Below are positions 3,112-48,312 of a stretch of DNA of 64,000 bases, in pieces. The translations under genes were made by a program, and so were the position numbers. Numbering within the stretch: the stretch's first letter is position 1; every line of letters begins with the position of its first letter. Origin of the DNA: Flaccisagitta enflata (taxonomy: Eukaryota); assembly GCA_965153355.1 (NCBI GenBank), contig OZ231126.1, forward strand, positions 4,960,001 to 5,024,000, given 5' to 3'. Below the pieces are notes generated by a model, which was not told the origin of the DNA, did not search any database, and saw only the letters and a program-made list of their open reading frames with translations.

Positions 3112-4540
3112 CTACATGGTTAAAATTGTAACAAACTTGATGGGAATTTCAAGATCCCAACTTCCATCCCTTTTCCTTTTGCCAACACCAAATACTAAGC
3201 CTGAATATTCATTGTGGAAAAAGTTCAGGCCATTCCTCAGGGCAGAGAGCAACTGACAAGCATCGATGGTGACCATTGCATCAGCTTTTGGAAGGTATTC
3301 TCCTGGCCTCTGATGCAAAATTTATTCCACCTTCACAACTCATTGTGGAGAGAAAACCACCTTCTTCAATTATTTCCCTTGCATCAGTTGAATGAATCAG
3401 GGGGGCAAAAAATTCAATCAGCTTGTGGCCTTGAGGATTGGGAACATCAACCCATGTCCACCTAAAGCAGCAACTCTTCTTTCTTTCCTCTCTTTGCCAA
3501 CAATCCTTTCCCCAAAAGCAATCATTCGCCTTTTCCCCTTTCCTACATTCACAGCAGTGGCCTTGATCACAGTGCTTGGTGTGACTTGAAAATGGTGAGC
3601 TAAATGATGCAGATTAACAGATGAATCATTTTCACGATAAACCAATCCAGATGATGGCAAATCCTACCGCAGCAGTTTGACCAACTTCCTACTCAATTGC
3701 TACAAACTCCTTGCTTCTTCAAAAGGCATCTCAGGGTCAGGCACCACAGTTTTGGATACATTTAGGGACCAGTAAGCGGCATGAGACCTGCTTTTGATAT
3801 CTTTGATGGACCCAATGGCCATAATCCTCTGTTTGTCAATTTTTGCCATTTCCTCTCTTTCTGCATCTCTTTTGGCTTCTTTCTCGACTATCATTCGCTC
3901 CCTCTGTTCGACGCATTGTTTTTCTTTCTCAGGCCTTCCTGGTTTCACCCAACATCTTGCCTTCTTGGGCAGCGGCCCCGAAGGGGACAAAGTCCTGTAG
4001 AACACAGGGGACTTTCGTTTGTTCCTTTGTTTGTTCGTTTGTCCGTTTGTTCATTCCTTCGTCCCCCCCCCAGGCCCTCTCAGGCCTGAAATCTGCCCTC
4101 TCAGGCCTAAAATTTGCCTTCTCAGGCCTAAAATCTGCCCTCTCAGGCCTTGAATCTGCAGTCTCAGGCCTTAAATTTGCCCTTTCAGGCCTGAAACCTG
4201 TGCTCTCAGATTCAAGGCCTGAGAGGGCAGATTTCAGGCCTGAGAGGGCAAATTTTAGGCCTGAGACTGCAGATTCAAGGCCTGAGAGGGTCTGGGGGGG
4301 GACGGATGGACGGACGGACGGACGGGCGGATGAATGAACGAAAGTCCCCTGTGTTCTACAGGACTTTGTCCCTTTCGGGGCCGCTGCCATGCCTCTCATT
4401 CCAATTTACAACAATGCAAAGCAGGGCAATGGGTATCGCTGACCACATATTGCCCTTGAGCGACCTGTTTTCCCATCATCTTGCAACTGACACTCTTCCA
4501 GTTGGTCAGAAAGTGAGCCCTCATTGATTTCAGCCATTGT
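3112..4540 (-). pseudogene. Decayed coding sequence inside the long-TIR transposon (product unknown)
   Basis: Adjacent minus-strand ORF pieces (3112-3318, 3418-3660, 3700-3963) with protein-like composition, interrupted by a repeat at 3965-4470. No catalytic motif recognised. Confidence 0.35.
3965..4470 (+). mobile_element. Helentron-type element family B with 21-bp internal tandem repeats
   Basis: TT-GGGCAGCGGCCCCGAAGGGG..GTCCTGTAGAACACAGGGG head. Its inverted copy is subterminal and followed by a conserved tail ending GCGACCTGTT. GGAC microsatellite. Many copies in the window. Confidence 0.7.
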
Positions 4541-6645
4541 TTTGGAACTGCCTTAGAGAAGGGATACAAATAAACTCAAAATAAACAATAGGAGTCTCAA
4601 GCAGATTTTGTCTTTGAAATTATGTAGAACAGTAAAAAGCGTATTTTTTAGAATAGCTGAAATTGATCTATTATCAAGGCAAGTTAAGGGCATAGAATCT
4701 TCAGTCTCCGCCAACCCATTGCATACCGACTCCTGTAGTAACGCGATATGCGGTATTCACCATGGCAACGTAACGCCGTTTTAGCGTCTAGGTGGCGTTA
4801 TTTGGGAAGTTATTAATTGTTGCTTTTTTTCATTAAAGATTTTTTATGATCATTTGAAAAAAAAAAACACTAAAGATAGAGAGAGTTACTACTAGTTATG
4901 ATTTTTTTTCACTTTTTACTTTTCATTTTATATTTTTCATTTTATATTTTTCTTTTTTCATATTTCATATTTCATTTTTCATTTTTCATTTTACATTTTT
5001 CATTTGTCATTTTCCATTTTTCACTTTTCACTTTTCACTTTTTACTTTATACTTTAGTTTTCATTTATTCACTTTTCACTTTTCACTTTTCATCTTCTAT
5101 TTTTTATTTAACAAACAAGACTTGTTTATTACTATCTTTCAATAGCTTTGAATGGTTTTTAATAGCTTTTAATAGTTTTGAATAGCTTTACTTAGTTTTA
5201 AATAGCTTCATTTAGCTTAATACAGTTTTACATAAATTTGTATAGCTTTTTTTGGCTTTATATAGCTTTAAATATCTTTTAAAAAAACGTAACGACCAGA
5301 AACGAAGTCGTTATATGCAAAAATTGTAACTACAGTGTCTTTGATGCTATTTAGGAGTAACGAAACCTGAGAAAAAACGGGTTTTCAAATTTCCTACGCA
5401 ATCCGTTGGTCTCCGCTGGAACTATCAAGTTATCAATATAATCTTTTCCATGTTATTTTATCTTTAAACTTGCTATGGTTAAGTGACTCAATTGTTTACT
5501 TGCCATCCATGAATCTTTTTCCTTTGCTCACATATATCCGTATAAGCGCCAATTCTTCTCAAGTCAGAGGGTTTGACTGATTCAAACCTCCCGTCAGACA
5601 TGATAAGAGGCTCATTTATGTTGATCAAAAAACAAAAAAAACAAAAAAAAAACAAAAAAAAGGAAAACACCAATGCTAGGTTGCAAGTCCTGGAGGAAGA
5701 AGCTTGAGCACTGAAACAATCATAAAACTCATACATTTTTCATTGTTTTGCAATAACAGCCCTAGTATTTAGCCATGACAGATAGCAATGAAACATGTTT
5801 TGAATACTGTTTTGGCTAATTAGGACACCACTCATGATATAACAAGTCACAAATATTCTTTTCTTTGATTGATATGATAGAAGTGATAAAAAGTAAAAAT
5901 TTCAGGAATTAGGCGAAAACAGTGATTTTTTCATTTTTACGCCAAAAGGGCCCTGTCTTTACTGACACTCATAGCAAACAGCCATATGATATTGATGTAA
6001 ATGTTGTTACGGCATATTAGAACACCACTAATGGATAAACAAGTCAAACAGTATTCATTAATTAATTCTAGTAATATTAATAATGAATGTAAAAAAACAC
6101 AATTTTGGCGAAAATAGCGATTTTCACCTATTGGATATGTCAACTTCTGTCAAAAATGGCTCCACCTTCCCAATGACTCAGCGTCCCAAAATTTTTTTCT
6201 TGTAATAAGGACATATTGAACCAAATATAACCTGAGTTCTGAGACAATTTTCAAAATACAATCCTGTATGCTATCCCCTATCCTGTAGCACGCGACTATA
6301 AATGATTTTCTATCCAGGTCAAAATAAAACGGACAAAGCGGGAGGTTAAGACGGGGGGAGAGGAGGTGGAGTGTCAGGTCAGGTCAGGTTTGGAATGAGT
6401 GAAAACCATCCATCGTCAATAATGCTGCAGGGTGTAGGAGGTTAAGCTGACCAACGACCAACCAACAGACCATCCAACCAACCAACCAACGGATAAAGCG
6501 GAATGTAGAGTCGTGTAGCATGCGACTGTAAATGATTTTCTATCCAGGTCAAAATAAAACGGACAAAGCGGGAGGTAAAGACGGGGGGAGAGGAGGTGGA
6601 GTGTTAGGTCAGGTCAGGTTTGGAATGAGTGAAAACCATCCATCG

Positions 6646-8255
6646 TCAATAATGCTGCAGGGTGTAGGAGGTAAAGCCGTCACTCGGGAAGGGGTTGTCG
6701 GCGATTGTGGCGCGACAAAGCGGGCACGTCCGCTCCTGATCAAACCACTTGGAAACACACTCTTTGCAGAATATATGTTTGCAGCTGAGTTTGAAGGGCT
6801 CCTTGAATTCGTCATGGCAAATGGAACAGTTATGTTCCAACCTTGTGACTCCGTTGGATTTCAAATTGATTGGATTGACACATGATGATTGCATATCAAG
6901 GCCGGCCCTTGCTTGATTTTGACCAGTAATCAATGTTGTGACCCCACCTGAAATTGAATTGATAGGATTGACACATGATGATTGGCTGTTGAGGCTAGAC
7001 TGTGCTCTACTTTGTCTAGTAATCAATGTTGTGACCCCGCTTGAAGTTGAATTGATAAGATTGACGTGTGATGATTGGCTGTTGAGGCTTGCCTGTGCTT
7101 GACTTTGTCTAGGAATCAATGTTGTGACCCCGCTTGAAATTGAATTGATAGGATTGACGTGTGTTGATTGGCTGTTAAGGCTTGCCTGTGCTCGACTTTT
7201 ACTAGTAATCAATTCTTTGACCTTGAAGCAAGCAAGGATAAAGCCAGCAAGCAAGGGAGCACTTAACAGTCCTATCACTATGACTACAATTAGGGTATTG
7301 ATGTTTTTAGTTCTTCTGTTGCAAATGACAGACGGAGTACTGCGCCACACGCCATCCGTGTGACACGTGAGATCCCCGCCCGCGGAACAACAGTAATCTC
7401 CCTTCTTTATTATCGTATTTCGGTCTCTACTTTCTTTAGCAACACATGATGAACCCACAGGGCTGGAGTACTTTGTGTCACACTCCCAAAAGCATCCTTT
7501 GACATATGGTTTCGCGCCGCATTCAACAATCTCGCAGTGAAGGTTTTGACTCTGCCAAATGCCTCCGCCAGTGAACATGGATTGTGAATCTGCTTGGCAA
7601 ACGACTTCTCCTCCAACAATCCACCGATCCCGATTGGCCGCCGCTCGACATCGAGACCCAAGGGAACTACCATTAGTACAATTCACTAAGCTAAAAGCGA
7701 AACAAGTTAAGTTAAAATTATAATGATAATCTGACACTAAAGACTTAGGTGGCGGTGGCCAAGGGCACTCGATCATACCGCATGTCACATGGCCGTCCCA
7801 AGAGCCCTTTTCATTACAAACAAATTGGCCTTTGGCATAGTGTCCTTCCGGTACATTGATGGAGCAAACTGTGCCCGAGAATAGAGTGTTTGAGGAACAA
7901 GAATAATGAACGGCCACTACGTTAGAAGAATCTCGCAGATTCTGACACGTATTAGGATATGGTATTGAATGAATTGGCGGACAAATTCGTCGACAGGCTG
8001 TTTCCTGTCTCATTTTCCAATTGGATGTGTTTCCTGGGCCAAATTCAATGGTGCATTGGAACTCAACTTGATCTCCATTATTGGCTGGACGGAATCCTGG
8101 TTTACAGTCTCTCTTGACAATGTCGAGGATATGGACAACTTCTGAGGAGTGGTTGGAAGAGTTTGTCAATGACAAGGGATTGATGGTTTGGAGCGAGTTG
8201 ATCAGAGGATGCAGGTCATTCATTAGGCAGCCGCAAACCTGAGCCGATTTAGTGC
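6646..8255 (-). CDS. Exon 4: ~4 sushi/CCP-like modules, TM helix (~7225-7293), 4x31-aa repeats, C-terminal C3HC4 RING (RNFT1/2-like)
   Basis: Acceptor tctcacag|GC is in frame with the 525-aa ORF. Sushi-like motifs GTVCSI..C..GSWDG..C and GSSC..LTCHTDGVW..C. TM LIVVIVIGLLSAPLLAGFILACF followed by KVK. RING CSICHDEFKEPFKLSCKHIFCKECVSKWFDQERTCPLCR. Confidence 0.9.
6838..7209 (-). repeat. Coding tandem repeat, 4 x 93 bp (31 aa) in the cytoplasmic tail
   Basis: aatcaatgttgtgacccc recurs at ~6928, 7021 and 7114. Unit approx. ITRQSRAQASLNSQSSHVNPINSISSGVTTL. Confidence 0.9.
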
Positions 8256-8317
8256 CTGTGAGATCAAGAACCAGGAGGAGGAAGATGTAAAGGATTTAAA
8301 TAATATTTACAAAAAAA

Positions 8318-8820
<503 letters not shown>

Positions 8821-8850
8821 TTAATAAAAACAAAAATAATCTTTCTTCAC

Positions 8851-9091
8851 CTTTTTCCACCTCCAATACATCGATAATGGACTCAAAACAAGCGCAACTT
8901 CCATTCTTGAAAAGGGTCCAGCCTTTAGCCACTGAACTCAAGGCTCCGGATTCGCAGCTTTGTCTACAGCCATGTGGAGTCGCTACGTCAATTTGCGATG
9001 TTGAATGGAGAAAAGTCGAATTTCCAACAAAAGACACTCCATCAGTTGGGATCGAACATTGAACCACCGTGCCAGAGAGAGTGGCACCATC
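8851..9091 (-). CDS. Exon 3: PAN/Apple-like domain
   Basis: Acceptor ttttccccacag|GAT, phase 0. Cys pattern C...G...TPHGCRQSC...GWT...GSCACF. Donor AAAG|GTGAAG, phase 1, compatible with exon 4. Confidence 0.75.
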
Positions 9092-10799: not shown

Positions 10800-11086
10800 C
10801 TTGAGTTCTACGGCGGGTATCGGGCCAATGATGTCGTGGGAGAGCAGCCCTTTAACCGTTGTCCAGGAATTGAATATCAACGAGATATTCCTGACGGCGC
10901 CAACAAATCTATTATCAGCGTCAAATTTCATTCCGTCAAAGTCGTTCACTTTTTGGCCAAGGACGAGTTTTCCACCAACGCAAAGCGGCATTGGATTTAG
11001 ATACTCGCTCATAATCAGCTCCCCGTTGACAGTGAGAATAGTCCAACCAGTACGACCGTTAAAAATCCAGTGCGCAGTCACCCATT
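10800..11086 (-). CDS. Exon 2: C-terminal half of pentraxin domain
   Basis: Pyrimidine tract + CCAG acceptor. Splicing to exon 1 gives FPIGEWVTAHW. GGKLVLGQKVNDFDGMKFDADNRFVG matches the pentraxin GGxLxLGQEQD...FDxxxxFVG pattern. Donor AAG|GTTGGT, phase 0. Confidence 0.85.
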
Positions 11087-11115
11087 CTGGGTTGACAGAG
11101 GAAAGAGAAAAGCTT

Positions 11116-11821
11116 AACAGGTCGCCCAAGGGCAATATGTGGTCAGCGATACCCGTTGCCCTGCTTTAAGTGATTGTGAATTGGAGTGAGGGGAAGCAGG
11201 GCAGCGGCCCCAAAGGGGACGAAGTCCTGTAGAACACAGGGGGACTTTCGTTCGTCCTGCCTGAAGAAGTGGATGAGTTGCTATAGAGGGCTTACTAAAG
11301 GCCTTCAAGTGCCTAAACTGAGGTCTAAGACGTCTGATGTAACGCCTCAGAATGCCATCGGAAGCTTGAGAGGGCTGACTTGATGCTTGAGAGAGCTGGA
11401 TTAAGGCTTGAAAGGTCAGATGACTGATTTGAAGCCTGAGAGCAATAAATTGAGGCTTAGATAGCTGATTTAAGGCCTGTGAGGCTTGATTTGAGGCCTG
11501 AGAGGCCTAATTTGAGGCCTGGGAAGCCTGAGAGGCCTGAGAGGCCAGGTTTGAGGCCTGAAAATTTGGAGTTGAGGCCTGAGAAGCCTAATTTGAGGCC
11601 TGAGAGGTTGGATCTGAGGCCTGAGAGGCCGGATTTGAGGCCTGAGAGGCTGGATTTGAGGCCTGAGAGGCCAGATTTGAGGCCTGAGAGGCCAGATTTG
11701 AGGCCTGAGGGGCCTGGTGAGGGGGGGACTAACGAACGGACGAACAAACGAACGAACGGACGAACGAAAGTCCCCCTGTGTTCTACAGGACTTCGTCCCC
11801 TTCGGGGCCGCTGCCCAAAAA
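11116..11821 (-). mobile_element. Helentron-type element family B in intron 1
   Basis: Reverse complement of the 3965-4470 structure with about 12-15 copies of a 21-bp repeat (GAGGCCTGAGAGGCCAGATTT-like). Confidence 0.75.
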
Positions 11822-12225: not shown

Positions 12226-12616
12226 CTCCAATTGGAAATGTAGTATTTTTGTGTATTGAAGCCTTATGACCACCCATTAGCAGCGTGTAAGCTTTGTCTT
12301 TGGCCGATCCTGGAAGCCCAAGCGCCAATTCATTGGGCTGCTGCGGGACGGCGTAAGATAGGAAGAAAGGATAAGGCGTTGGCTGCGTGATTAGCAAGTC
12401 AACCGTCAACCATAACCACTGAACGTTCAAAGGCATTATCGGGTGGATGATCACGTGAGCATTCTGCTGGTGAGCCGGGAAATGGATTTCATAGCCAGGA
12501 GAGGAGGCAAAGGTCGAGGAGGAGGAGGAGGAGGAGGAGGGAGATGAAGAGACCGACAATGATAAAAGTAGAATAGAGATAACGACTGCCTGCGCGATAC
12601 TCTTATTAGTCGCCAT
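12226..12616 (-). CDS. Exon 1 of pentraxin-PAN-sushi-TM-RING gene: signal peptide, poly-Ser linker, N-terminal half of pentraxin domain
   Basis: ATG in AAAATGG context. Hydrophobic leader AQAVVISILLLSLSVSS. FLSYAVPQQPNEL resembles the neuronal-pentraxin motif FSYAVPGQANE. Donor GGAG|GTATGT, phase 1 (391 nt). Confidence 0.85.
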
Positions 12617-15059: not shown

Positions 15060-18000
15060 GCCTTTAGCCTCTAACTCAGTGCCAACCCGGCTTACCTCTT
15101 CATTGATGGCCTATTCTGAAACCATCAACCCCATTCTACGGCCTCTGCCATTTAGCTCTCACTCACTGCCAACCCGGCTACCCTCTTCTTTGACCTGTTC
15201 TTCACCCTCAATCCCATCCTGTGGCCTTCTCTTTTAAACTCACTCACTGCCAACCCGGCTACCCTCTTCTTTGACCTGTTCTTCACCCTCAATCCCATCC
15301 TGCGGCCTTCTCTTTTAAACTCACTCACTGCCAACCCGGCTACCCTCTTCTTTGACCTCTTCTTCACCCTCAATCCCATCCTGTGGCCTTCTCTTTTAAA
15401 CTCACTCACTGCCAGCCGGTCTACCCTCTTCTTTGACCTCTTCTTCACCCTCAGTCCCATCATAGCTATATCTCTGCTGTGTTGCTACCCTCTTCTTTGA
15501 CCTCTTCTTCACCCTCAATCCCATCCTGTGGCCTTCTCTTTTAAACTCACTCACTGCCAGCCAGCTCTCTCTTCTTTGACCTGTTCATGCCCTCAGTCCC
15601 GTCCTGTGGCCTTCCTCTTAAACTCACTGCATGTGACCAGGCTAACCTCTTCTTTGACCTGTTCTTCACCCTCAATCCCATCCTGCGGCCTTCTCTTTTA
15701 AACTCACTCACTGCCAACCCGGCTACCCTCTTCTTTGACCTCTTCTTCACCCTCAATCCCATCCTGTGGCCTATATCATAAACTCACTCACTGCCAACCC
15801 AGCTTGCCTCTTCTTTGTCATCTTCTTCACCCTCAATCCCATCTCTGACCTTCTCTTTTAAACTCACTCACCAACCCGGCTACCCTCTTCTTTGATCTTA
15901 TTATATCAATCCCGTCATGAAAAGCCTTATCTTTCAAACTCTTTCATGTAACCATTCTACTCTTCTTGACCTGTTCTTCACCCTCAATCCCATCCTGTGG
16001 CCTTCTCTTTTAAACTCACTCACTGCCAACCAGCTACCATATTGCTGGCCTCTTCTTCACCCTCAATCCCGTCGCGGCCTTCTCTTTTAAACTCGCTCAC
16101 TGCAACCATTTACCTCTTCTTCTGACCTCTTCTTCACCCTCAATCCCATCCTGCAGCCTTCTCTTAAACTTCTGGCTGCTCTGACCAAATACTGTTTGTT
16201 ATCTTCTTCACCCTCAATCCCATCCTGCGGCCTTCTCTTTAAACTCTCTGCCAACCCAGCTACCCTCTTCTTTGACCTCTGCTGCACCCTCAATCCCATC
16301 CTGCGGCCTTCTCTACTAAACTCACTCACTGCCAACCCGGCTACCCTCTTCTTTGACCTCTTCTTCACCCTCAATCCCATCCTGCGGCCTTCTCTTTTAA
16401 ACTCACTCACTGCCAACCCGGCTACCCTCTTCTTTGACCTCTTCTTCACCCTCAATCCCATCCTGCGGCCTTCTCTTTTAAACTCACTCACTGCCAACCA
16501 GGCTACCCTCTTCTATGGCCTGTTCTTCACCTCAATCCCATCCTGTGGCCTTCTCTTTTAAGCTGCTCACCTCCAACAATACCCTGTTCTTGACCTGTTG
16601 TTGCCTCAATCTAGTCTGTGGCACTTTTCTGACTCTTTCCTTTCCTCCAACCCGAGTTTGCCCTCTTCTTGACCTGTTCTTCACCTCAATCACGTCCCTG
16701 TGGCCTTTTTTTAAACTCACTCACTGCCAACCTGGCTACCTCTTCTTGTCCTGCTCTTCCCCTCAATCCCATCTGTGGCCTTTTTAAACTCACTCACTGC
16801 CAACCATTCCACTCTTTGACTATTCTTCACCCTCAATCCCATCCTGTGGCCTTCTCTTTTAAACTCACTCACTGCCAACCCGGCTACCCTCTTCTTTGAC
16901 CTGTGCTTCACCCTCAATCCCATCATGTGACCTGCTCTTTTAAACTCACTCACTGCCAACACGAGCTACCCTCTTCTTTGACCTCTTCTTCACCCTCAAT
17001 CCCATCCTGTGGCCTTCTCTTTTAAACTCACTCATGCTAACCGGCTACCCTCTTGACCTGTTCTTCTTTCAATCCCATCCTGTGGCCTTCTCTCTTTTTA
17101 ACTACCTCACTGCCAACCCGGCAAACCTCAAAGGCGATTCTCGTTGGTCTGTTCTTCCACCCTCGAATCCCACATCCTGTGGCCTTCTCTTTTAAACTCA
17201 CTCACTGCCAGCAGCTACCCTCTTCTTGACCTGTTCTTCACCTCGATCCCACATCCTGTGGCCTTCTGTAGAAAACTCACTCCTCTGCTTGGCTACCTCT
17301 TCATGACCTGTTCTTCACCCTCAATCCCATCCTGTGGCCTTATACATAGACTCTTCATGCCCGACCTGGCTGCCTATTCTTTGACCTGTTCTTCACCCTC
17401 AATCCCATCCTGTGGCCTCCTCTTTTAAACTCACTCACTGCTAACCCGGCTACCCTCTTCTTTGGCCTGTTCTTCACCCTCAATCCCATCCTGTGGCCTC
17501 CTCTTTTAAACTCACTCACTGCCAACCCGGCTACCCTCTTCTTTGGCCTGTTCTTCACCCTCAATCCCATCCTGTGGCCTCCTCTTTTAAACTCACTCAC
17601 TGCCAACCCGGCTTCCCTCTTCTTTGGCCTGTTCTTCACCCTCAATCCCATCCTGTGGCCTTCTCTTTTAAACTCACTCACTGCCAACCCGGCTTACTCT
17701 CTTCTTTGGCCTGTTCTTCACCCTCAATCCCATCCTGTGGCCTTCTCTTTTAAACTCACTCACTGCCAACCCGGCTACTCTCTTCTTTGGCCTGTTCTTC
17801 ACTCTCAATCCCATCCTGTGGCCTTCTCTTTTAAACTCACTCACTGCCAACCCGGCTACCCTCTTCTTTGACCTGTTCTTCACCCTCAATCCCCTCCTGC
17901 AGCGCTTCTGTAAACTCCACTCACTGCTGTGTCTCTCTTCTTTGTTTTATTCTTCTGCCTCAATCCCATCCTGTAGCCTCTTTTAAACCTCACTGCCAAC

Positions 18001-21000
18001 CCGGCTACTCTCTTGTTTGGCCTGTTCTTCACTCTCAATCCCATCATGTGGCCTTCTCTTTTAAACTCACTCACCAACCCGGCTGCTCTTCTTAACCTGT
18101 TATTTACCCTCAATCCCCATCCTGTGGGCTTCTCTTTTAAACTCACTCACTGCCAACCCGGCTACCCTCTTCTTTGGCCTGTTAACTACCCTCAATCACA
18201 TCCTGTGGCCTTCTCACTGACACTCACTCACTGCCAACCTGGCTACCCTCTTCTTTGGCCCTGTTCTTCACCCTCAATCACATCCTGTGGCCTTCTCATT
18301 TAAACTCACTCACAGCAAACCCGGCTACTCTCTTCTTTGACCTGTTCTTTACCCTCAATCCCATCCTGTGGCCTTCTCTTTTAAACTCACTCACTGCCAG
18401 CCAGCCTCCTCTCTTCTTTGGCCTCATTCTTACCCTCAATCCCATCTGTGGCCTTCTCTTTTAAACTCACTCACTGCCAACCAGCTACCTCTCTTCTTTG
18501 GCCTGTTCTTCACTCTCAACCCATCCTGTGGCTACTCTTTAAACTCACTCCACTGCCAACCATTACCTTCTTTGGCCTGATCTTTACCTCAATCATCCTG
18601 TGGCCTTCTCTTAAAACTCTGTCACTGCCCAGCTACCCTCTTCTTTGACCTGTTCTTCACCCTCAATCCCATCCTGTGGCCTTCTCTTTTAAACTCAATC
18701 ACTGCCAACCCGGCTACCCTCTTCTTTGACCTCTTCTTCACCCTCAATCCCATCCTGCGGCCTTCTCTTTTAAACTCACTCACTGCCAACCCGGCTACCC
18801 TCTTCTTTGGCCTGTTCTTCACCCTCAATCCCATCCTGTGGCCTTCTCTTTTAAACTCACTCACTGCCAACCCGGCTACTCTCTTGTTTGGCCTGTTCTT
18901 CACCCTCAATCCCATCCTGTGGCCTTCTCTTTTAAACTCACTCACTGCCAACCCGGCTACTCTCTTCTTTGGCCTGTTCTTCACTCTCAATCCCATCCTG
19001 TGGCCTTCTCTTTTAAACTCACTCACTGCCAACCCGGCTACTCTCTTGTTTGGCCTGTTCTTCACTCTCAATCCCATCCTGTGGCCTTCTCTTTTAAACT
19101 CACTCACTGCCAACCCGGCTACTCTCTTCTTTGGCCTGTTCTTCACCCTCAATCCCATCCTGTGGCCTTCTCTTTTAAACTCACTCACTGCCAACCCGGC
19201 TACTCTCTTGTTTGGCCTGTTCTTCACTCTCAATCCCATCCTGTGGCCTTCTCTTTTAAACTCACTCACTGCCAACCCGGCTACTCTCTTCTTTGGCCTG
19301 TTCTTCACTCTCAATCCCATCCTGTGGCCTTCTCTTTTAAACTCACTCACTGCCAACCCGGCTACTCTCTTCTTTGGCCTGTTCTTCACCCTCAATCCCA
19401 TCCTGTGGCCTTCTCTTTTAAACTCACTCACTGCCAACCCGGCTACCCTCTTCTTTGGCCTGTTCTTCACCCTCAATCCCATCCTGTGGCCTTCTCTTTT
19501 AAACTCACTCACTGAACCCGACTACTCTCTTCTTTGGCCTGTTCTTCACTCTCAATCACATCCTGTGGCCTTATAACTTAAACTCACTCACTGCCAACCC
19601 GGCTACACTCTTGTTTGGCCTGTTCTTCACCCTCAATCCCCTCCTGTGGCCTTCTCTTTTCAACTCTCTCACTGCCTACCCTGCTACCCTCTTCTTTGGC
19701 CTGTTCTTTACCCTCATCTTATCGTGGCACCTCTTTTAAACTCACTCACTGTTCGGCTAACCTCTTCTTTGACCTGTTCTTCACCCTCAATCCCATCCTG
19801 TGGCCTTCTCTTTTAAACTCACTCACTGCCAACCCGGCTACCCTCTTCTTTGGCCTGTTCTTCACCCTCAATCCCATCCTGTGGCCTTCTCTTTTAAACT
19901 CACTCACTGCCAACCCGGCTACTCTCTTCTTTGGCCTGTTCTTCACTCTCAATCCCATCCTGTGGCCTTCTCTTTTAAACTCACTCACTGCCAACCCGGC
20001 TACCCTCTTCTTTGACCTGTTCTTCACCCTCAATCCCATCCTGTGGCCTTCTCTTTTAAACTCACTCACTGCCAACCCGGCTACCCTCTTCTTTGACCTG
20101 TTCTTTACCCTCAATCCCATCCTGTGGCCTTCTCTTTTAAACTCACTCACTGCCAACCCGGCTACTCTCTTCTTTGGCCTGTTCTTCACTCTCAATCCCA
20201 TCCTGTGGCCTTCTCTTTTAAACTCACTCACTGCCAACCCGGCTACTCTCTTCTTTGGCCTGTTCTTCACCCTCAATCCCATCCTGTGGCCTTCTCTTTT
20301 AAACTCACTCACTGCCAACCCGGCTACTCTCTTCTTTGGCCTGTTCTTCACTCTCAATCCCATCCTGTGGCCTTCTCTTTTAAACTCACTCACTGCCAAC
20401 CCGGCTTACCTCTTCTTTGGCCTGTTCTTTACCCTCAATCCCATCCTGTGGCCTTCTCTTTTAAACTCAATCACTGCCAACCCGGCTACCCTCTTCTTTG
20501 GCCTGTTCTTCACCCTCAATCCCATCCTGTGGCCTTCTCTTTTAAACTCACTCACTGCCAACCCGGCTACTCTCTTCTTTGGCCTGTTCTTTACCCTCAA
20601 TCCCATCCTGTGGCCTTCTCTTTTAAACTCACTCACTGCCAACCCGGCTACTCTCTTCTTTGGCCTGTTCTTCACCCTCAATCCCATCCTGTGGCCTTCT
20701 CTTTTAAACTCACTCACTGCCAACCCGGCTACTCTCTTCTTTGGCCTGTTCTTCACTCTCAATCCCATCCTGTGGCCTTCTCTTTTAAACTCACTCACTG
20801 CCAACCCGGCTACTCTCTTCTTTGGCCTGTTCTTCACTCTCAATCCCATCCTGTGGCCTTCTCTTTTAAACTCACTCACTGCCAACCCGGCTACTCTCTT
20901 CTTTGGCCTGTTCTTCACCCTCAATCCCATCCTGTGGCCTTCTCTTTTAAACTCACTCACTGCCAACCCGGCTACCCTCTTCTTTGGCCTGTTCTTCACT

Positions 21001-22870
21001 CTCAATCCCATCCTGTGGCCTTCTCTTTTAAACTCACTCACTGCCAACCCGGCTACCCTCTTCTTTGACCTGTTCTTCACCCTCAATCCCATCCTGTGGC
21101 CTTCTCTTTTAAACTCACTCACTGCCAACCCGGCTACCCTCTTCTTTGACCTGTTCTTCACTCTCAATCCCATCCTGTGGCCTTCTCTTTTAAACTCACT
21201 CACTGCCAACCCGGCTACCCTCTTCTTTGACCTGTTCTTCACCCTCAATCCCATCCTGTGGCCTTCTCTTTTAAACTCACTCACTGCCAACCCGGCTACT
21301 CTCTTCTTTGGCCTGTTCTTCACCCTCAATCCCATCCTGTGGCCTTCTCTTTTAAACTCACTCACTGCCAACCCGGCTTACCTCTTCTTTGGCCTGTTCT
21401 TTACCCTCAATCCCATCCTGTGGCCTTCTCTTTTAAACTCAATCACTGCCAACCCGGCTACCCTCTTCTTTGACCTGTTCTTCACCCTCAATCCCATCCT
21501 GTGGCCTTCTCTTTTAAACTCACTCACTGCCAACCCGGCTACTCTCTTCTTTGACCTGTTCTTCACCCTCAATCCCATCCTGTGGCCTTCTCTTTTAAAC
21601 TCACTCACTGCCAACCCGGCTACCCTCTTCTTTGACCTGTTCTTCACCCTCAATCCCATCCTGTGGCCTTCTCTTTTAAACTCACTCACTGCCAACCCGG
21701 CTACCCTCTTCTTTGACCTGTTCTTCACCCTCAATCCCATCCTGTGGCCTTCTCTTTTAAACTCACTCACTGCCAACCCGGCTACCCTCTTCTTTGGCCT
21801 GTTCTTCACTCTCAATCCCATCCTGTGGCCTTCTCTTTTAAACTCACTCACTGCCAACCCGGCTACTCTCTTCTTTGGCCTGTTCTTCACTCTCAATCCC
21901 ATCCTGTGGCCTTCTCTTTTAAACTCACTCACTGCCAACCCGGCTACTCTCTTCTTTGACCTGTTCTTTACCCTCAATCCCATCCTGTGGCCTTCTCTTT
22001 TAAACTCACTTTAAGCTCTTAACCAGCTACTCTCTTGTTGGCCTGTTCCTCTCAATCCCATCATGTGGCCTTCTCTTTGCAAAACTCACTCTTTTCTGCT
22101 TGGCCTCTTCTCTTGTGCTGTTCTTCCTCTCAATCATCATACAGCCTCTCTTGCAACTAAACTTTCATGCAGACCAGGCTACTCTCTTGTTTGGCCTGTT
22201 CTTCACTCTCAATCCCATCCTGTGGCCTTCTCTTTTAAACTCACTCACTGCCAACCCGGCTACTCTCTTCTTTGGCCTGTTCTTCACTCTCAATCCCATC
22301 CTGTGGCCTTCTCTTTTAAACTCACTCACTGCCAACCCGGCTACTCTCTTCTTTGGCCTGTTCTTCAATCTGATCTGAGTCCTGTGGCCTTCTCTTCAGC
22401 TCCTTTCCTGCCAACCGGCTATATTCTTTGTTGTTCTTCTTACTCACTTCCATCCTGTGGCCTTTTCTTTTAAACACACTCACTGCCAACCCGGCTACTC
22501 TCTTCTTTGACCTGTTCTTTACCCTCAATCCCATCCTGTGGCCTTCTCTTTTAAACTCACTCACTGCCAACCCGGCAAACTTCAAAGGCGATTCTCGTTG
22601 GTTTATTCTCAAACTTGACCCCATCTAACGGCACCCAACCCTAAAACACCCTTAAACTACTATCAATCCGGCTCCCCTTAAAGGCGGCCCTCTTTGTTCT
22701 GTTCTTAAACTTGACCCCATCTTACAGCCTTACACTCTCACCTTACACTCTCACCTACTACCAACCCGGCTCCAAACAAAGGCGATCCTCTTTGGCGTGT
22801 TCTTCATCACTCAACCATACACCTACCGCCTTCATCCCTAAACCCTCACTTTTTGTGAACCCTGTACAAC
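15060..22870. repeat. 81-bp satellite array, about 92 monomers (core ~15157-22577, diverged edges)
   Basis: Monomer CCTGTGGCCTTCTCTTTTAAACTCACTCACTGCCAACCCGGCTACCCTCTTCTTTGACCTGTTCTTCACCCTCAATCCCAT repeated head to tail. Confidence 0.97.
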
Positions 22871-24164: not shown

Positions 24165-26150
24165 CTGACCAGGGCATGGGTATCGCTAACCACAATGACC
24201 CTGCCTAAGTAGGTGGTGATTGAAGTTAAGGGAGAGAGCAGGGCAGCGGGCCTGAAGGGGTCAATGACCTATGCTTTCACACATGAGGAAATTTCTCTTT
24301 CTCCTCATTCTAGCGGTTGAAATTTGCGCCTTTGGGCAAAGTTTAGCCTTAGCGCTAGGATTTAGGCTTTAGGGCGGGATTTTGGGCCTTTCGGCTGGAA
24401 TTTGTGCCTCTTATTGGATTTGGTGCTATTGGCTGGCATTTGAGTGTGGAGGCTGGGTTTTTAGGCTTTGAGGTTGGGATTTGGGCCTCGAGGCTGAAAT
24501 TTCCTCTGGGATTCTTCTTCTTCTTTTAATTGGGTAGCGGCCCCAAAGGGCCGATGTCCTGTAGAACACAGGGGGGAATTTCCAGAAGTTCGGCTGTCAA
24601 ATCCAGCATCTCAGGCCTCAAATCCAGCTTCTCAGGCCTTAAATCCAGTCTCTCAGGCCTCAAATCCAGCCTCTCAGGCCTCAAATCTAGCCTCTCAGCC
24701 CTCAAATCCAGCCTCTCAGGCCTCAAATCTAGCCTCTCAGGCCTAAAATCTTTCCTCTTACGCCTCAAATCTGGCCTCTAAGGCCTCAAATCCAAATTCT
24801 CAGGCCTCAAACCTGGCCTCTCATGCCTCAAATTAGGCCTCTCAGGCCTCAAACCAGCCATCTAACCCTCCATTTATTGCTCTTAGGCTTCAAATCAGTC
24901 CTCTGGCCTTTCAAGCCTTAAACAGCTCTCTCAAGCCTCAAGTCTGCCCTTTCAAGCTTCCAATTGGCATTCTCAGACCTTATATCAGCCTTCTTAGACC
25001 TCAGTTCAGGCCCTTGAATGCCTTCAGTCAGCCTTCTATAGCATCTCATCAACTTCTTCAGGTAGGACGAACAAAAGTCCCCCTGTGTTCTACAGGACTT
25101 CGTCCCCTTCGGGGCCGCTGCCCTGCTTCCTCTCACTCCAATTCACAATCACTCAAAGCAGGGCAACGGGTATTGCTGACCACATATTGCCCTTGGGCGA
25201 CCTGTTAGGCTTTGAGGTTGGGATTTGGGCCTCGAGGCTGAAATTTCTTCTGGGATTCTTCTTCTTCTTTTTGGGCAGTGGCCCCAAAGAGCCGATGTCC
25301 TGTATAACACAGGGGGGAATTTCCAGAAGTTCGGCTGTCCATCCCTCTGCCTGTCCATCCGTCCGTCCTTCTGTCCCCCCCCCTTGGCCATCAAGACCTC
25401 AAATCTGCCCTCCCAGCCCTCAATTTAGCCTTCGAGGCCTCAAATCAGCCTTCCAGCCGTATGTCCAGCCTCAGCCTCAAATCATGCTCAGGCCTCGTCT
25501 ACCTCAGACCTTCGCCTCTAAGCTTGTCAAACCAGCCGTTCACGGCTCAAATTTCTCCCTCAAAACCTATAATCTGCTCTCAGAAGCCTTATTCTGCCCT
25601 GAAATATCGGGTACTGCTGACCATGTGCGATCCTTGGATGACTGATTACTCCTATGTCCCCCCTCAATCCAGTCTGAGGTCCAAATTCCAATCTGGGATC
25701 AGTGTTGATCTTGAGGCCACATCCCAGCCTCAAGGCCCAAATCGTAGCCTCAGGCCCCGTCCTAGCCTGGAGGCTAGTTTTGCAGTCTTGGGCGATCTCC
25801 CAGCCTCCAATAATAAAATCTCAGCCAAGAGGCCAAGATCCACTTGGCTAAATCCCGGCCTTAAGGCTAGTCTCAGCCTCAGGCTAGGATTTTGGAGCTT
25901 TGAGGCCAAGTTTGGACGTCGAGGCTGGGATGTGAGCCTCAAGACTGGAATTTGGGCCTCAGACTGGAGTTGGTCTCCCGGACTAGGGTGAGGGGAGGAG
26001 GAGGAGGAGGGAGGAGGAGGAGAAGGCCACACATATGTGTGAAAGCATAGGTCATCGGCCTTGGGAGCCTGCCTGCTCATCATCCAGCCACAGCCTGCAC
26101 TTAGGCAGGGCACGGGTACCGCTGACCATCTAACGCTTTTGCGACTATTC
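24165..26150. mobile_element. Cluster of nested/tandem family B and C Helentron-type elements (full family B copy at ~24528-25206)
   Basis: Several GGGCAGCGGCCCC-like heads, 20-21-bp internal repeats and GGGTAYCGCTGACCA tails. Confidence 0.65.
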
Positions 26151-31098: not shown

Positions 31099-32081
31099 AT
31101 TGACAGATAGAGAATATTCGAGACAGCAATGATGAGACAGAGGCGAGGTGTCGTGTGGGTCAGTGACTACTGACCAGTGACCGAACTGAAGAGTGAAGCC
31201 AGGAAATGAGATCGTAGCGAGAATGAGGGGGGGGGGGGACTGGAAGAACGCGTCGCGTGCGCGATGGCTGAACGGGCGGACGGACGGAGAAAATGCCCGA
31301 TGGTAGGAATGCGTGGAGATGTGCTGAAATCTAATGACTCAGCTTCTTACAAGGAGTGACAAAGCCTTAATTCAGGCTTAAATTTAAATTGTTTTAAAGA
31401 GATGAGAGACAGCATCTATGAAGCCCTATCAGTCGGGTGTGTCAATATGCAAAAGGTTTTATGATGATACCATCAACATAAGACAGCATTAAGTAGTAAA
31501 TATTAAGACCTTTAGCGTTTTTCTTTTGTCAAATTTTATTCATCTTCCATTTTTTTCAAAACCGCTTTTTAGCCGCTAATTTGTATATTGCTGTGTTAAT
31601 GATTCTGTATCAGCATTATTGCTCAGGAATATAATTAAGTTTACATATATAAAAATATCTTACTGCTAATTCTAGTTTTAACTGAGTAGATGTTGTTCAT
31701 TTATCAAAAAATCTATAGAAAGAGACAAAAACTAATCTTTTCTGTAGAAATCATGTGTCTTATTTTCACCAAATCTAGGTGCAGATGCTGGAAGTATATA
31801 TGAATGATATTATATTCGTCATCAAAAATGACAGTGGCACTCCGCAACAACAATCAGTTACTACAGCTAGAGATAAAAAAAGAAAAAAAAAGAAAAAGAG
31901 GTTCAGTCTTCAACGTTTTCTACTTTAGTGATGATAGCCAAACGTGAAATGATCTTATTACCGGTCGTACCATTTAGACATTGAGTGATAAATCGTGTAT
32001 ATTTTTGTCAATCTTTTCTTGCGCTAAAAACACGGAAGATGAAAGAAATTTGAGAAAACAAAAACGCTAAATGTCTTAGAA

Positions 32082-33852
32082 TTTTTAGTCGCGTGCACGC
32101 GACTCTACAACCCGCTTTGTCCGTCGGTCGGTTGGTCGGTTGGTCGGTTGGTCGGTCGGTCGGTCGGTCACACTTTACTTTTTTTATCAATTTTATTTCT
32201 TTAAGTCATTTTCAGTCATTTTAAGTCATTTTGAGTCATTCTAAGTCATTCTAAGTCATTCTAAGTCATTCTAAGTCATTCTAAGCCATTTTAAGTCATT
32301 TTAAGTCATAATTGTCATTTTAGTCAATATAGACCTTTTCTTCATTTTAAGTCATTCTAAGTCATTTCAAGTTATTTCAAGTCATTTCAAGTGATTTTAG
32401 GTCATTTCAAGGGATTTTAAGGCATTTTAAGTCATTCCAAGTCATTTTAAGTCATTACTGTCATTTTAGTCAATATAATCCTTTTTATCATTTTAAGTCA
32501 TTTTAAGTCATTTTAAGACATTTTAAGTCATTTTATGTCATTATAAGTCATTATACGTCATTTTAAGTCACTTCTAGTCATTCAAAGTCATTCTCAGTCA
32601 TTTTAGTCACTTTAGTCAATATAGTCATTTCACTTTTGATTTACATAATTATAGGTAATTATAGGTCATTATGCAATTTTGGGTAATCATAGGTAATTAC
32701 AGGTCATTATAAGTCATTATGCAATTATAGGTAATCATAGGTCATTATAGGTAATCATAGGTCATTGTCGGTAATTATAGGTCATTATGTAATTATAGGT
32801 AATTAAAGGTCATTATAGGTAATTATAGGTTATTATGCAATTATAGGTCATTATTGGTAATTACAGGTCAGTATGTAATCATAGGTAATTATAGGTCATT
32901 ATAGGTAATTACAGGTAATCATAGGTCATTATGTAATTATAGGTAATTATAGGTTATAATAGGTAATTATAGGTCATTATAGGTCATTATGCAATTATAG
33001 GTCATTATTGGTAATTATAGGTCATTATATGATTATAGATAATCATAGGTAATTAAAGGTAATTATAGATCATCACAGGTAATTATAGGTCATTATGTAA
33101 TTATAGGTAATTATAGGTCATTATAGATGATTATAGGTAATAATAGATCATTTTGAAATTATGGGTAATTATAGGTAAAGGTAATTTAAGGTCATTATGT
33201 AATCATAGGTAATCAAAGGTCATTATAGGTAATTATATGTCAATAGATAATCATAGCTAATTTTAGGTCATTATTCAATTATAGATAATCATAGCTAATC
33301 ATAGGTTATTATAGGTAATTATAGGTAATAATAGGTCATTATAGGTCATTATGCAATTATTGGTAATTATAGGTAATCATAGGTCATCATAGGTCATTAT
33401 GTTATTAAAGGTAGTTATGGGTAATTATGGGTAATCATAGGTCATTACAGATAATCATTGGTCCATATGTAATTATAGGTAATCATAGGTTTTTATAGGT
33501 AATTATTTGATTATGGGTAATCATAGGTAATTATAGGTAATTATAGGTAATTATAGGTCATTATGTTATTATAGGTAACTGTGGGTAATTATGGGTAATC
33601 ATACTTCATTGTAGGTAATTATTGGTCCATATGTAATTATAGGTAATCATAGGTCTTTATAGGTACTTATAGGTCATTATTTGATTATGGGTAATTGTAG
33701 GTAATTATAGGTAATTATAGGTCATTATAGGCAATTATAGGTCACTAGGTAATTATAGTCATTATCGTCATTTAAGGAAATAACATACTTATATAATTAG
33801 GCGATTATGTAAGTAAGTCCCGCACGCGACTTATAGGTGTTGGCCTTGTTTT
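32082..33852 (+). mobile_element. Helentron-type element family A with ~1.6 kb of central 10-bp tandem repeats
   Basis: TTTTTAGTCGCGTGCACGCGACT head, (GGTC)n, then TTAAGTCATT and ATAGGT(A/C)ATT arrays, subterminal CACGCGACT, end GGCCTTGTTTT. Confidence 0.8.
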
Positions 33853-37199: not shown

Positions 37200-38890
37200 G
37201 GTTCCCTTTTTGGGCTGTGGCTGTAGGACACGGGTGAATTTTTAGACGTCAATCCACCCCCCACTATTGGGTCCTCAAATCAGCACTCTCAGGCCTGATT
37301 TTGGCCCTCATGCCCTCAAATCAGCTTTCCAGACCTCATATCTGCTCTCAAGACCTCGAGGCTTCAAATCAGCTTTCAATACCTCAAATCTGCCCTTTAG
37401 GCCTCAAGCCTGGCGCCTGACCTCAAAACTGCTCTTCAGGCCAAACCAGTCGCTGAAGGGCAATATGTGGTCAGCAATACTCCTTACCCTGCTTTTCATG
37501 ATTGTGAATATGAGCGGGGGTAGCAGGGAAGTGGCCCGTCCATCCATCCATGAACTGAGGGGGCAAATTTGAAGCCGAAAGAGGATGGTTAGAGGCCTGA
37601 GAGGGTTTTTTGGGCAGCAGCCCCAAAGGGCACGAAGTCCTATAGAACACAGGGGGAATCTGTCCGTCCATCTATATGTCCTTCGGTCCGTCCATCCATC
37701 TGTCCCTTCCTCACCTCATCTTTAGGGCTTTGTCTCCTTTAGGGCCTATTCTGACCCAAATTCTGCCAAATAGCCCAAATTCAAGCAATATGGCCCATAT
37801 CTTAGCAGAATGGCCCAAATCCTAGTATAATGGATCAAATTCAAGCAAAATGGCCCAAATCTAGCCAGCAATCCCACAATTTGGCCTGAGGTCCATCATT
37901 TTGGCCCCTTAGACCTATGTTGTGGTTTCCAATACCTAGATTCTGACCAGATTTGGGCCATTTTGCTTTGATTCGAGCCATTTTGCTTGAATTTGGGCCA
38001 TTATGCTTGGATTTGGGCCACTTTGCTGACGGTTGGACGGATCAACCAATCAACCTGTGTTCTACAGGACTTCTTCTCCTTCGGGGCCATTGCCCTGCTC
38101 CCCCTCAACGTAAACCACACACTACTCAAGCAGGGCACGGGTACCGCTGACCATTTACTGCCTTTGGGTTGATTTGAAGCCTGTGTGGGCTCATTTGAGA
38201 CCCAAGGCCTGATTTGAGGTCTGTTAGGGCTGATTTGAGGTCTGAGAGGGCTGATTTGAGTCCTGTGAAGGCTGAGTTGAGGTATAAGAGGTCTGAAAGG
38301 CTGGATTTGAGGCCTGAGAGACCTGATTTGAGGCCTTATAGGTCTGATTTGAGGCCTGAGAGGCCTGATTTGAGGTCTGAGTTGCCATAGGGGGAAGACA
38401 AACAAATTGAAGAACAATCAAATGAACGAACACACATCCCTGGTGTTCTACAGGACATTGTCCCCTTTGGTGGGACCAACCAACCAACTGATGGACATTC
38501 ATAGCAGGTTGTAGAGTCAAATAGCATGCGACTAAAAAACAAGTCTTCAAATCAGCCTTCCATGCCTCAAATCAGCTTTCAAGACCTCAAATCTGCCCTT
38601 TGAGCCTCAGGCCTGCCGCCTGATCTCAAATCTGCTCTTCAGGCCAAAAAAAAGGGGACCAACCAACCAACCAACTGATGGACAAACGGACAGATGGACA
38701 GACATAGGGGGAAGACAAATGAATTGAAGAACAGACGAATTGAAGAACAATCAAATGAAGTCCCCCTATGTTCTACAGGACTTTGTTCCATTTGGGCCGC
38801 TGCCCTGCTTCCCCATACTCAAATTCGCAACCATGCAAAGCAGGGCTATGGGTATTGCTGACCACATATTGCCCTTGAGCGACTGGTTCT
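37200..38890. mobile_element. Cluster of diverged family B Helentron-type elements
   Basis: Repeated GTCCTRTAGAACACAGG / TGTTCTACAGGAC motifs, GCTGACCACATATTGCCC tails and 21-bp repeats. Confidence 0.6.
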
Positions 38891-48225: not shown

Positions 48226-48312
48226 ATTAAAAATAATCCAAAGTTGGATTTTTGATTGTGGAAGTTGATCTCAGACTTGTTTTAGCTATGGTTAACAGTA
48301 ACAAGCGGTTAC

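Follow-up and report, generated by a model that had tools for sequence, protein, structure and literature searches.

An RNFT-type RING finger and C-terminal tail on a predicted single-pass, receptor-like protein of Flaccisagitta enflata

A 64,000-nucleotide stretch of the Flaccisagitta enflata genome (GenBank assembly GCA_965153355.1, contig OZ231126.1, positions 4,960,001 to 5,024,000 of the forward strand; hereafter the window, in whose coordinates all positions are given) carries on its minus strand, from 12616 to 6646, a predicted gene whose product ends in the RING finger and C-terminal tail of the RNFT1/RNFT2-type ligases of the endoplasmic reticulum (ER). We consider it likely that this is a four-exon gene for a type I single-pass receptor-like protein, and propose that the protein acts as a receptor-type E3 ubiquitin ligase. 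An earlier, sequence-only reading of the locus had suggested that domain shuffling grafted an RNFT-type catalytic tail onto a lectin-like receptor. The RNFT-type tail on an unrelated carrier held up under analysis, while the "lectin-like" part comes down to marginal matches.

A stop-to-stop frame of 549 codons, running from 8295 to 6649 on the minus strand, holds the end of the ectodomain, a membrane helix, a set of repeats and the RING together. Pfam models place the RING at residues 489-528 of this frame (zf-RING_2, E 3.5e-10; zf-C3HC4, E 1.1e-09). The last 60 residues start at the codon of the first RING cysteine (6828-6826), and the segment 6828-6649 comprises a complete C3HC4 finger and a 21-residue tail, with the stop directly after it:

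6712..6828, minus strand: RING-HC (C3HC4) core of 39 residues, with all eight zinc ligands present and recognized by Pfam RING models
6649..6711, minus strand: post-RING tail of 21 residues, ending DG-F-TS-YT-LQ-H-Y-COOH, the RNFT C-terminal signature
6646..6648, minus strand: stop codon, TGA on the gene strand

The C-terminal pattern given in the sequence-only reading, CSIC..EF..P..L.C.HIFC.EC...WF..ERTCPLCR..I.D....DG.TS..LQ.Y followed by a stop, agrees with the translation at every residue. The ligand pattern is C3HC4 with a cysteine as fifth ligand, and the finger is thus not of the RING-H2 type. The best sequence matches of the RING in the PDB are RNF141, AMFR and HRD1/synoviolin at about 40 bits or less, all with alignments that end before the post-RING tail; TRIM21 is also matched, and this PDB sequence search found no RNFT protein among solved structures. 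An AlphaFold2 model of the RING-plus-tail monomer, computed with a 98-row alignment, has a predicted local distance difference test score (pLDDT) of 84-89 over model residues 11-50 and of 51-56 over the tail, a low confidence at which the conformation of the tail is not predicted.

The affinities of this terminus emerged from an exhaustive HMMER search of 1.84 billion representative proteins with the last 70 residues as query, which recovered 11,502 matches at E <= 0.001, 289 at <= 1e-10 and two at <= 1e-30. Among the best 150 of the 11,502, which were inspected, 98 end like the query in CP.CR-x(5-24)-DG.[TS]-x(5-8)-COOH; the typical RNFT-type matches are multi-pass proteins of 400-470 residues. 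Many of the other 52 also belong to this type but carry a variant residue or have a shortened or lengthened end, and 17 are clearly other RINGs. Most motif-bearing matches are 50-68% identical to the query, and many alignments reach the final residue of both proteins. Examples are a Tubulanus protein named RNFT2-like by its source (P0007; 62% identical, aligned through the last residue) and a plant RNFT-like protein (P0002; E 6e-20, with 56% identity across 62 residues that include the last one of each protein). By source name, the matches also include RNFT1 of Pavo (P0099) and a cluster (P0118) containing the Bos taurus "E3 ubiquitin-protein ligase RNFT1".

The RING core and the tail can each be assigned separately. 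With the 39-residue core alone, the 98 RNFT-type matches score 39.5-58.9 bits (median 52.1) and the 17 clearly non-RNFT matches 18.2-38.2 bits (median 25.6), two ranges that do not overlap. A tail-only profile, built from the post-RING tails of 97 matches with the closest relative of the query (P0004, described below) excluded, gives the 21-residue tail of the query 14.9 bits. This score is equalled by one in 20,000 composition-preserving shuffles. Among 5,688 natural windows from non-terminal parts of the matches, 6 score as high, and some of these are genuine tails of proteins whose ends are extended. The query keeps every invariant column of the 98-row RNFT alignment (H28, C31, C34, W38, C45, P46, C48, R49, D60 and G61) as well as the nearly invariant ones (C11, I13, C14, P21, L24, C26, F30, R41, E42 and T63). 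It thus has both the conserved RING-HC residues of the family and the DG-x-[TS]-x(5-8)-COOH tail with its hydrophobic or aromatic end. Structural work on RING fingers has assigned E2 (ubiquitin-conjugating enzyme) contact and "linchpin" roles to the Ile, the Trp, the Pro and the Arg after the eighth cysteine; these positions of the RNFT alignment are all present in the query RING. With all zinc ligands and family-invariant residues retained, the finger is predicted to be catalytically competent.

In a maximum-likelihood tree (quick search) of 99 RNFT-type RING-plus-tail rows and 16 outgroup RINGs over 60 columns, the query pairs with P0004 (SH-aLRT, the Shimodaira-Hasegawa-like approximate likelihood-ratio test, 100; stem 0.44). 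The pair lies within a clade of 76 rows (SH-aLRT 98) that includes named nemertean, gastropod and vertebrate RNFTs, with a plant-type group standing separately. Ranking, tail-only profile, core-only scores and tree agree with the earlier statement that RNFT1 and RNFT2 share a near-identical ending, post-RING terminus included. The similarity search and phylogeny that had been suggested as a check put the RING in the animal RNFT clade rather than in another RING family, and the post-RING similarity stands well clear of shuffled tails. We conclude that RING and tail are homologous to the RING and tail of the RNFTs, and that by descent the tail is an RNFT tail.

A set of metagenome contigs (L018-L023 and L056) encodes RNFT-like sequences that match the query only up to residue 53. 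In two of them (L018 and L019) the frame goes on with a divergent tail (...DGGT-x5-[FV]F), and the upstream frames of 218-277 residues are like intron-less protist genes, which suggests that the RNFT tail motif extends well past animals and plants.

The part of the protein ahead of the RING is of a different kind. In a BLASTP comparison of residues 1-485 with the 151 other stored proteins (P0002-P0152), P0004 is the only match and the next best has an E value of 2.5. When eight RNFT-type proteins, seven of them full-length RNFTs, were compared with the 64-kb window by tblastn, they matched only 6649-6828 (one match running to 6870), and no RNFT body is encoded elsewhere in the window. Among the best 150 tail matches, 59 of the 60 motif-bearing proteins of at least 300 residues have at least two hydrophobic 19-residue windows and 47 have at least three; the exception, P0048, has one at the threshold used. 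This fits the earlier statement that RNFTs are multi-pass proteins without an ectodomain, and the account of RNFT1 in an excerpt of PMC4971459 agrees. The query model has one internal hydrophobic stretch in 842 residues, preceded by about 620 residues with 32 cysteines and 11 N-x-[ST] sequons. The remainder of the protein is thus unrelated to the RNFT multi-pass body; lacking that body and having a predicted signal peptide and ectodomain, the protein should not be classed as an RNFT orthologue. P0004 alone shares its architecture among the best 150 of the 11,502 tail matches. A scan of metagenomes with the RNFT alignment yielded no further copy of the chimera, none of the best 80 of 440 relatives being more than 66% identical to the query tail. 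Among the literature titles listed for RNFT1/RNFT2 and for related domain combinations, none describes such an architecture, although titles are a weak basis for absence. The chimera is probably limited to one marine animal lineage. One match, P0050, which shares the RING start CSIC.DEFKEP with the query, was considered as a second chimera and rejected, being the C-terminal piece of an ordinary RNFT-like protein (last helix, linker and RING).

The proposed gene consists of four exons joined at GT-AG sites, 12616 -> 6646 on the minus strand, giving 2529 nt, or 842 codons and a stop that is the sole one and stands at the end. All three introns have consensus GT-AG sites and fitting phases:

12226..12616, minus strand: proposed exon 1, with the ATG at 12616-12614, encoding a signal-like hydrophobic N-terminus, a run of Ser and the beginning of a jelly-roll-like domain
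after 12226, minus strand: exon 1 donor TTGGAG|gtatgt, phase 1, assigned from splice context
10800..11086, minus strand: proposed exon 2, a pentraxin-like second half of the N-terminal domain; acceptor ...caacccag|AA in phase 1, donor CTCAAG|gttggt in phase 0
8851..9091, minus strand: proposed exon 3, placed by frame fit, 80 residues with five cysteines and no recognized family; acceptor ...tccccacag|GAT in phase 0, donor AAAAAG|gtgaag in phase 1
8256..8850, minus strand: intron 3, filled with two microsatellites, (GTT)n and (CTT)n as read in gene direction, found by Tandem Repeats Finder (TRF)
8255-6646, minus strand: exon 4, encoding ectodomain modules, helix, repeats, RING and stop; acceptor cacag|GC at 8256/8255, phase 1
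7294..8255, minus strand: extracellular part of exon 4, about 320 Cys-rich residues in three to four modules ending C-x3-G-x-W-x5/6-C, delineated by eye on the translation
7225..7293, minus strand: the one transmembrane helix, which spans residues 335-357 of the 549-residue frame and is followed by K/R-rich residues on the RING side
6864..7213, minus strand: cytoplasmic linker, built from a Ser/Asn/Gln/Thr-rich unit of 93 nt (31 residues) in 3.8 tandem copies, found by TRF and by repeat search

The predicted order of parts is thus a signal peptide, a weakly pentraxin-like domain, Cys-rich and possibly Sushi-like modules, one helix, four repeats and the RING. By hydropathy the model is hydrophobic at its N-terminus (residues 4-28) and in a single internal stretch, the membrane helix (windows 623-652, mean Kyte-Doolittle up to 2.78). 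As the residues following this helix are basic, the RING is predicted to lie on the cytosolic side, the placement required for a RING that must meet an E2. The linker repeat has 85% matches and no indels according to TRF, and its last copy stops three residues ahead of the first RING cysteine.

Two further observations concern the introns. TRF marks period-3 arrays at 8317-8453 (46 copies) and 8494-8820 (109 copies), which read on the plus strand as (AAG)46 and (AAC)109 and occupy most of intron 3; read in gene direction, the (CTT)n run gives a long pyrimidine tract about 60 nt upstream of the exon-4 acceptor. A translated motif, ...QSRA[TM]GIADHILPL[GS]DL..., recurs at 4195-4527, 11100-11165 and 24998-25645. 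One occurrence lies directly upstream of the exon-2 acceptor, where it inflates the stop-to-stop frame around exon 2, and the motif probably represents another dispersed element.

The second record of this architecture, P0004, is a 196-residue protein encoded on a 908-nt contig from a separate source, with the end of the ectodomain, helix, repeats, RING and tail in the same order. Compared with the query, 58 of 60 residues are identical in RING and tail, 34 of 40 in the ectodomain end, 61 of 69 in the linker, from which P0004 lacks 62 residues (two repeat units), and 16 of 24 in the membrane helix. The RING end is thus the best-kept region of the two proteins, and its near-identity next to the divergent helix points to constraint on the RING.

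Identification of the ectodomain is more tentative. For exon 2 the four best PDB matches are all pentraxins (C-reactive protein with E values of 0.017 and 0.018, neuronal pentraxin-2 with 0.019 and SAP with 0.65), and the alignments cover the C-terminal half of the pentraxin fold, at a marginal E of about 0.02 for this half of CRP and NPTX2. Exon 1 has no PDB sequence match; ESM features give only weak leads, to galectin, Laminin G and sialidase clusters (0.86-0.92), all of them concanavalin-like. Exon 3 has neither a Pfam family nor a meaningful PDB match. For the exon-4 ectodomain, the nearest clusters in the ESM Atlas are Sushi repeats (0.94-0.95, with 193-201 of 256 features shared), matches of low recognition value, and a single-sequence AlphaFold2 model has a pLDDT of 31.7 and is unusable. 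Likeness of exon 4 to Sushi-containing proteins is thus one of language-model features only, and its modules are possibly Sushi/CCP-like. Relatives of the receptor part were also sought in a word-index protein search, which requires shared exact words and gave three candidates and one match for the tail query; 832 candidates for the exon-4 ectodomain and 33 for exon 2 against longer proteins included none that was significant. "Lectin-like receptor" is therefore a reasonable if weakly supported label. Multi-domain proteins with pentraxin and Sushi modules exist, SVEP1 being an example, and the neuronal pentraxin receptor is membrane-anchored. Known pentraxins are secreted or membrane-anchored and have no ligase domain, whereas the protein described here ends in a RING.

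The layout of RNFT genes suggests how such a fusion could have arisen. Among the best 80 metagenome RNFT loci (of the 440 relatives), 18 were examined for exon layout. When a full-length RNFT is aligned to three genomic contigs (L005, L007 and L009), its final 75-88 residues match as a block of their own, 320-800 nt behind the preceding one, and in a further locus (L002) only the final RNFT block is seen. The open frame upstream of the RING extends for just 17-27 residues in 6 of the 18 loci (L002, L005 and L007-L010); in the other 12 it extends for 6-638 residues, and several of these resemble transcripts or genes without introns. The separate, short terminal blocks indicate that linker, RING and tail make up a discrete terminal exon in at least some animals, a module ready for transfer. 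In the query, RNFT similarity begins about three residues before the first cysteine, and the residues ahead of it belong to the 31-residue repeat. Either the breakpoint lay inside the canonical exon, or sequence upstream of it was overwritten by repeat expansion; the route may have been genomic duplication, retroposition or another. We propose that the last exon of a receptor-type gene received a copy of the catalytic end of an RNFT.

The 3' end of the gene has also been rearranged locally:

6281..6447, no strand assigned: downstream duplicate of 167 nt, 96% identical to 6511-6677, found by repeat search, blastn and alignment

The segment 6511-6677 holds the last ten codons of the gene, the stop and 135 nt of 3' flank, and the two direct copies lie 230 nt apart. 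A blastn comparison of 6200-6900 with the window finds the 167-nt unit twice only, and the flanks at 6200-6280 and 6446-6533 are pieces of dispersed repeats that match 1305-1461, 32081-32158 and 38475-38533. A dispersed repeat was considered as the source of the last ten codons and rejected, as the unit has just two copies in the window, both at the end of this gene, and RNFT homologues align across these codons to their final residue. On the same two grounds we take the end of the gene as the original and the other copy as the duplicate. The duplication shows that there was local rearrangement at the 3' end.

Several observations weigh against an intact, functional chimera of the kind proposed. 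Exons 1 to 3 are joined on splice consensus and phase only, and on the gene strand no AATAAA or ATTAAA occurs within 645 nt downstream of the stop. In the one polyA RNA run that carries the same organism label, of which about 6% was read, three reads map to the locus; all three fall within the dispersed repeat at 6390-6545, and exon 4 has none. Of the variants listed within the frame, 20 of 36 alter the protein, and 64 more variants lie beyond those listed. On the side of the ectodomain, the Pfam Pentaxin model (PF00354) matches exon 2 with an E value of 0.016 and 15.3 bits, below its cut-off of 25; the exon-4 ectodomain has no Pfam family at E <= 5, Sushi (PF00084) included, and no PDB sequence match, and the Sushi lead comes from the language-model search alone, with its low recognition value. 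The split between RNFT-type rows and outgroup RINGs in the tree is weak (SH-aLRT 79 over 60 columns). Finally, the fusion point lies inside the canonical RNFT terminal exon, so that a clean, intron-mediated exon shuffle is not supported.

These points bear in part on a first alternative, in which the fusion is recent, silent or in decay and would be a functionless side effect of duplication and repeat activity at the locus. In its favor are the silence of exon 4 in the portion of the RNA run that was read, the repeat-rich 3' end (the 167-nt duplicate, the dispersed-repeat pieces and the microsatellites of intron 3), the linker repeat number, which differs between the query record (P0001) and P0004, and the non-synonymous majority among the listed variants. 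The record of variation can be read more closely. The segment 6584-8254 is tiled, with allelic differences, by contigs of three runs (X1, X2 and X3), two of them DNA runs with the same organism label and one from a marine metagenome, although X1 may be the source of the assembly itself. Of the 40 variants listed, 36 are in frame, comprising 16 synonymous and 20 non-synonymous ones and no stop. The synonymous share expected for this frame is 22% under uniform change and 27% with a transition bias of 3, so the observed share is in excess (p = 0.003 to 0.017), and the only indel listed is an in-frame insertion of 3 nt at 7310; the lack of stop variants is by itself uninformative (probability 0.18). 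The 842 stop-free codons over four exons with canonical splice sites, the retention of all catalytic and family-invariant residues, and the contrast between RING plus tail and helix in the comparison with P0004 likewise argue against decay. We therefore regard a functionless fusion as unlikely and the gene as probably real and intact, with four exons.

A second alternative reverses the direction of transfer: a single-pass receptor with a RING tail would be ancestral or widespread, and the multi-pass RNFT would be one of several carriers. In its favor, the inspected matches are the best 150 of 11,502 and the protein collections contain few marine invertebrate proteomes. Nonetheless, 59 of 60 long RNFT-tailed matches are multi-pass, plant and animal lines included, the query pair is one twig on a long stem (0.44) within the animal RNFTs, and no locus among the best 80 metagenome relatives exceeds 66% identity to the query tail, which makes this direction very improbable. 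No more credible is an assembly or gene-model artefact joining two separate genes: the window is very repeat-rich and no single DNA-run contig spans the whole 2.3-kb stretch, but the receptor-RING junction lies within one uninterrupted exon and open frame and is thus no gene-model fusion, P0004 from its other source crosses from the ectodomain end to the RING on one 908-nt contig, and the tiling contigs of the three runs carry allelic differences across the segment. Generic RING-HC similarity or convergence, with a tail not descended from RNFT, can practically be set aside, for although many RING families match at E values of 1e-9 to 1e-5 (in the PDB, RNF141, AMFR, HRD1 and TRIM21) and the tree has few columns and a weak outgroup split, the best PDB RING scores 40 bits against 64-90 bits for RNFT-type matches, the core-only score ranges stand apart, and the tail matches on its own with alignments running to the last residue of both proteins.

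On the preferred reading of a receptor-type E3 ligase, the ectodomain would bind a ligand or partner, either on the cell surface or inside the endomembrane lumen, and the cytosolic RING would recruit a ubiquitin-charged E2. The RING could then ubiquitinate its own protein or neighboring membrane proteins for sorting, degradation or signalling. In RNF43 and ZNRF3 the ectodomain selects the partner and the RING marks membrane proteins. Domain shuffling is common among invertebrate surface receptors. The receptor-plus-RING design of the predicted protein can be likened to that of RNF43/ZNRF3, ligases treated in PMC10686798. Its closest parallel in layout is the PA-TM-RING family, including RNF13, GRAIL/RNF128 and Goliath/RNF130, whose members have a signal peptide, then a binding domain in the lumen or outside the cell, a single helix and a RING in the cytosol; the excerpted account in PMC4021871 describes the ectodomain, single helix and RING of this family and has the luminal domain picking partners. 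Hydropathy and the order of parts in the spliced model give the query the same signal peptide, single helix and cytosolic RING. However, PA-TM-RING proteins and RNF43/ZNRF3 carry a PA domain and a RING-H2 finger, whereas the query has a C3HC4 finger of RNFT descent and a pentraxin-like, Cys-rich ectodomain, with no Pfam match to a PA domain in any exon at E <= 1 to 5. As neither PA domain nor RING-H2 is shared, the likeness is one of design and not of ancestry, and the design known from PA-TM-RING and RNF43/ZNRF3 would have had an independent origin here.

With RNFT1 and RNFT2 the situation is the converse. Both share with the query a C-terminal RING-HC with the family residues on the cytosolic side of a membrane anchor, and the post-RING DG-x-[TS]-x(5-8) end with an aromatic last residue, at 56-68% identity over about 60 residues. 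Beyond these last 60-odd residues similarity ceases: the RNFTs, as far as the excerpt of PMC4971459 describes RNFT1, place several helices ahead of the RING and lack both signal peptide and ectodomain, while the query has one helix, an extracellular part of about 620 residues and a repeat linker. RNFT1 is characterized in that excerpt as a protein with multiple transmembrane domains, partly localized to the ER, with a role in ER-associated degradation and a RING-dependent autoubiquitination activity in vitro.

The locus may thus be viewed as a natural domain-shuffling experiment, in which the catalytic end of a conserved family of ER-type ligases was moved onto a receptor-like protein. RNFT RING and tail appear to have moved and persisted together, and their near-identity between the two chimeras, at 58 of 60 residues while other parts differ much more, suggests that the tail goes with the catalytic unit and not with the membrane body. 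A more speculative extension, which we consider rather doubtful, is that the protein is a lineage-specific pattern-recognition receptor signalling directly by ubiquitination: the pentraxin/CCP-type ectodomain would sense a microbial or self ligand and cluster the protein, and so unite RINGs whose conserved tail would be an autonomous, portable module for activation. In that case the RNFT RING and tail would work without the multi-pass body, and the chimera would offer a natural handle on the role of the strictly conserved DG-x-TS...aromatic-COOH end.

The rest of the window is rich in repeats and mobile elements. The CCAA-rich piece of dispersed repeat at 6390-6545 has a DNA-run word depth of about 44,000-152,000, compared with about 100-300 for the exon, and represents a very high-copy element that is possibly transcribed. 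A very long tandem array with a unit of about 27 residues occupies 15150-22470; it is open in several frames on both strands, including a frame of 810 residues at 19582-22014, and looks like satellite DNA rather than a gene. Fragments of Pao/BEL-type long terminal repeat (LTR) retrotransposons lie at 48286-49563 on the plus strand and 55119-58035 on the minus strand, with broken frames and Pfam matches to the gag-like DUF1759 (E 1.6e-12), the Pao peptidase A17 (E 4e-4) and an integrase core (E 2e-4). Adjoining these remains, at 59108-61123 on the minus strand, is a Gln- and charge-rich frame of 671 residues with no Pfam family, which could be either a genuine gene or a piece of the retrotransposon.

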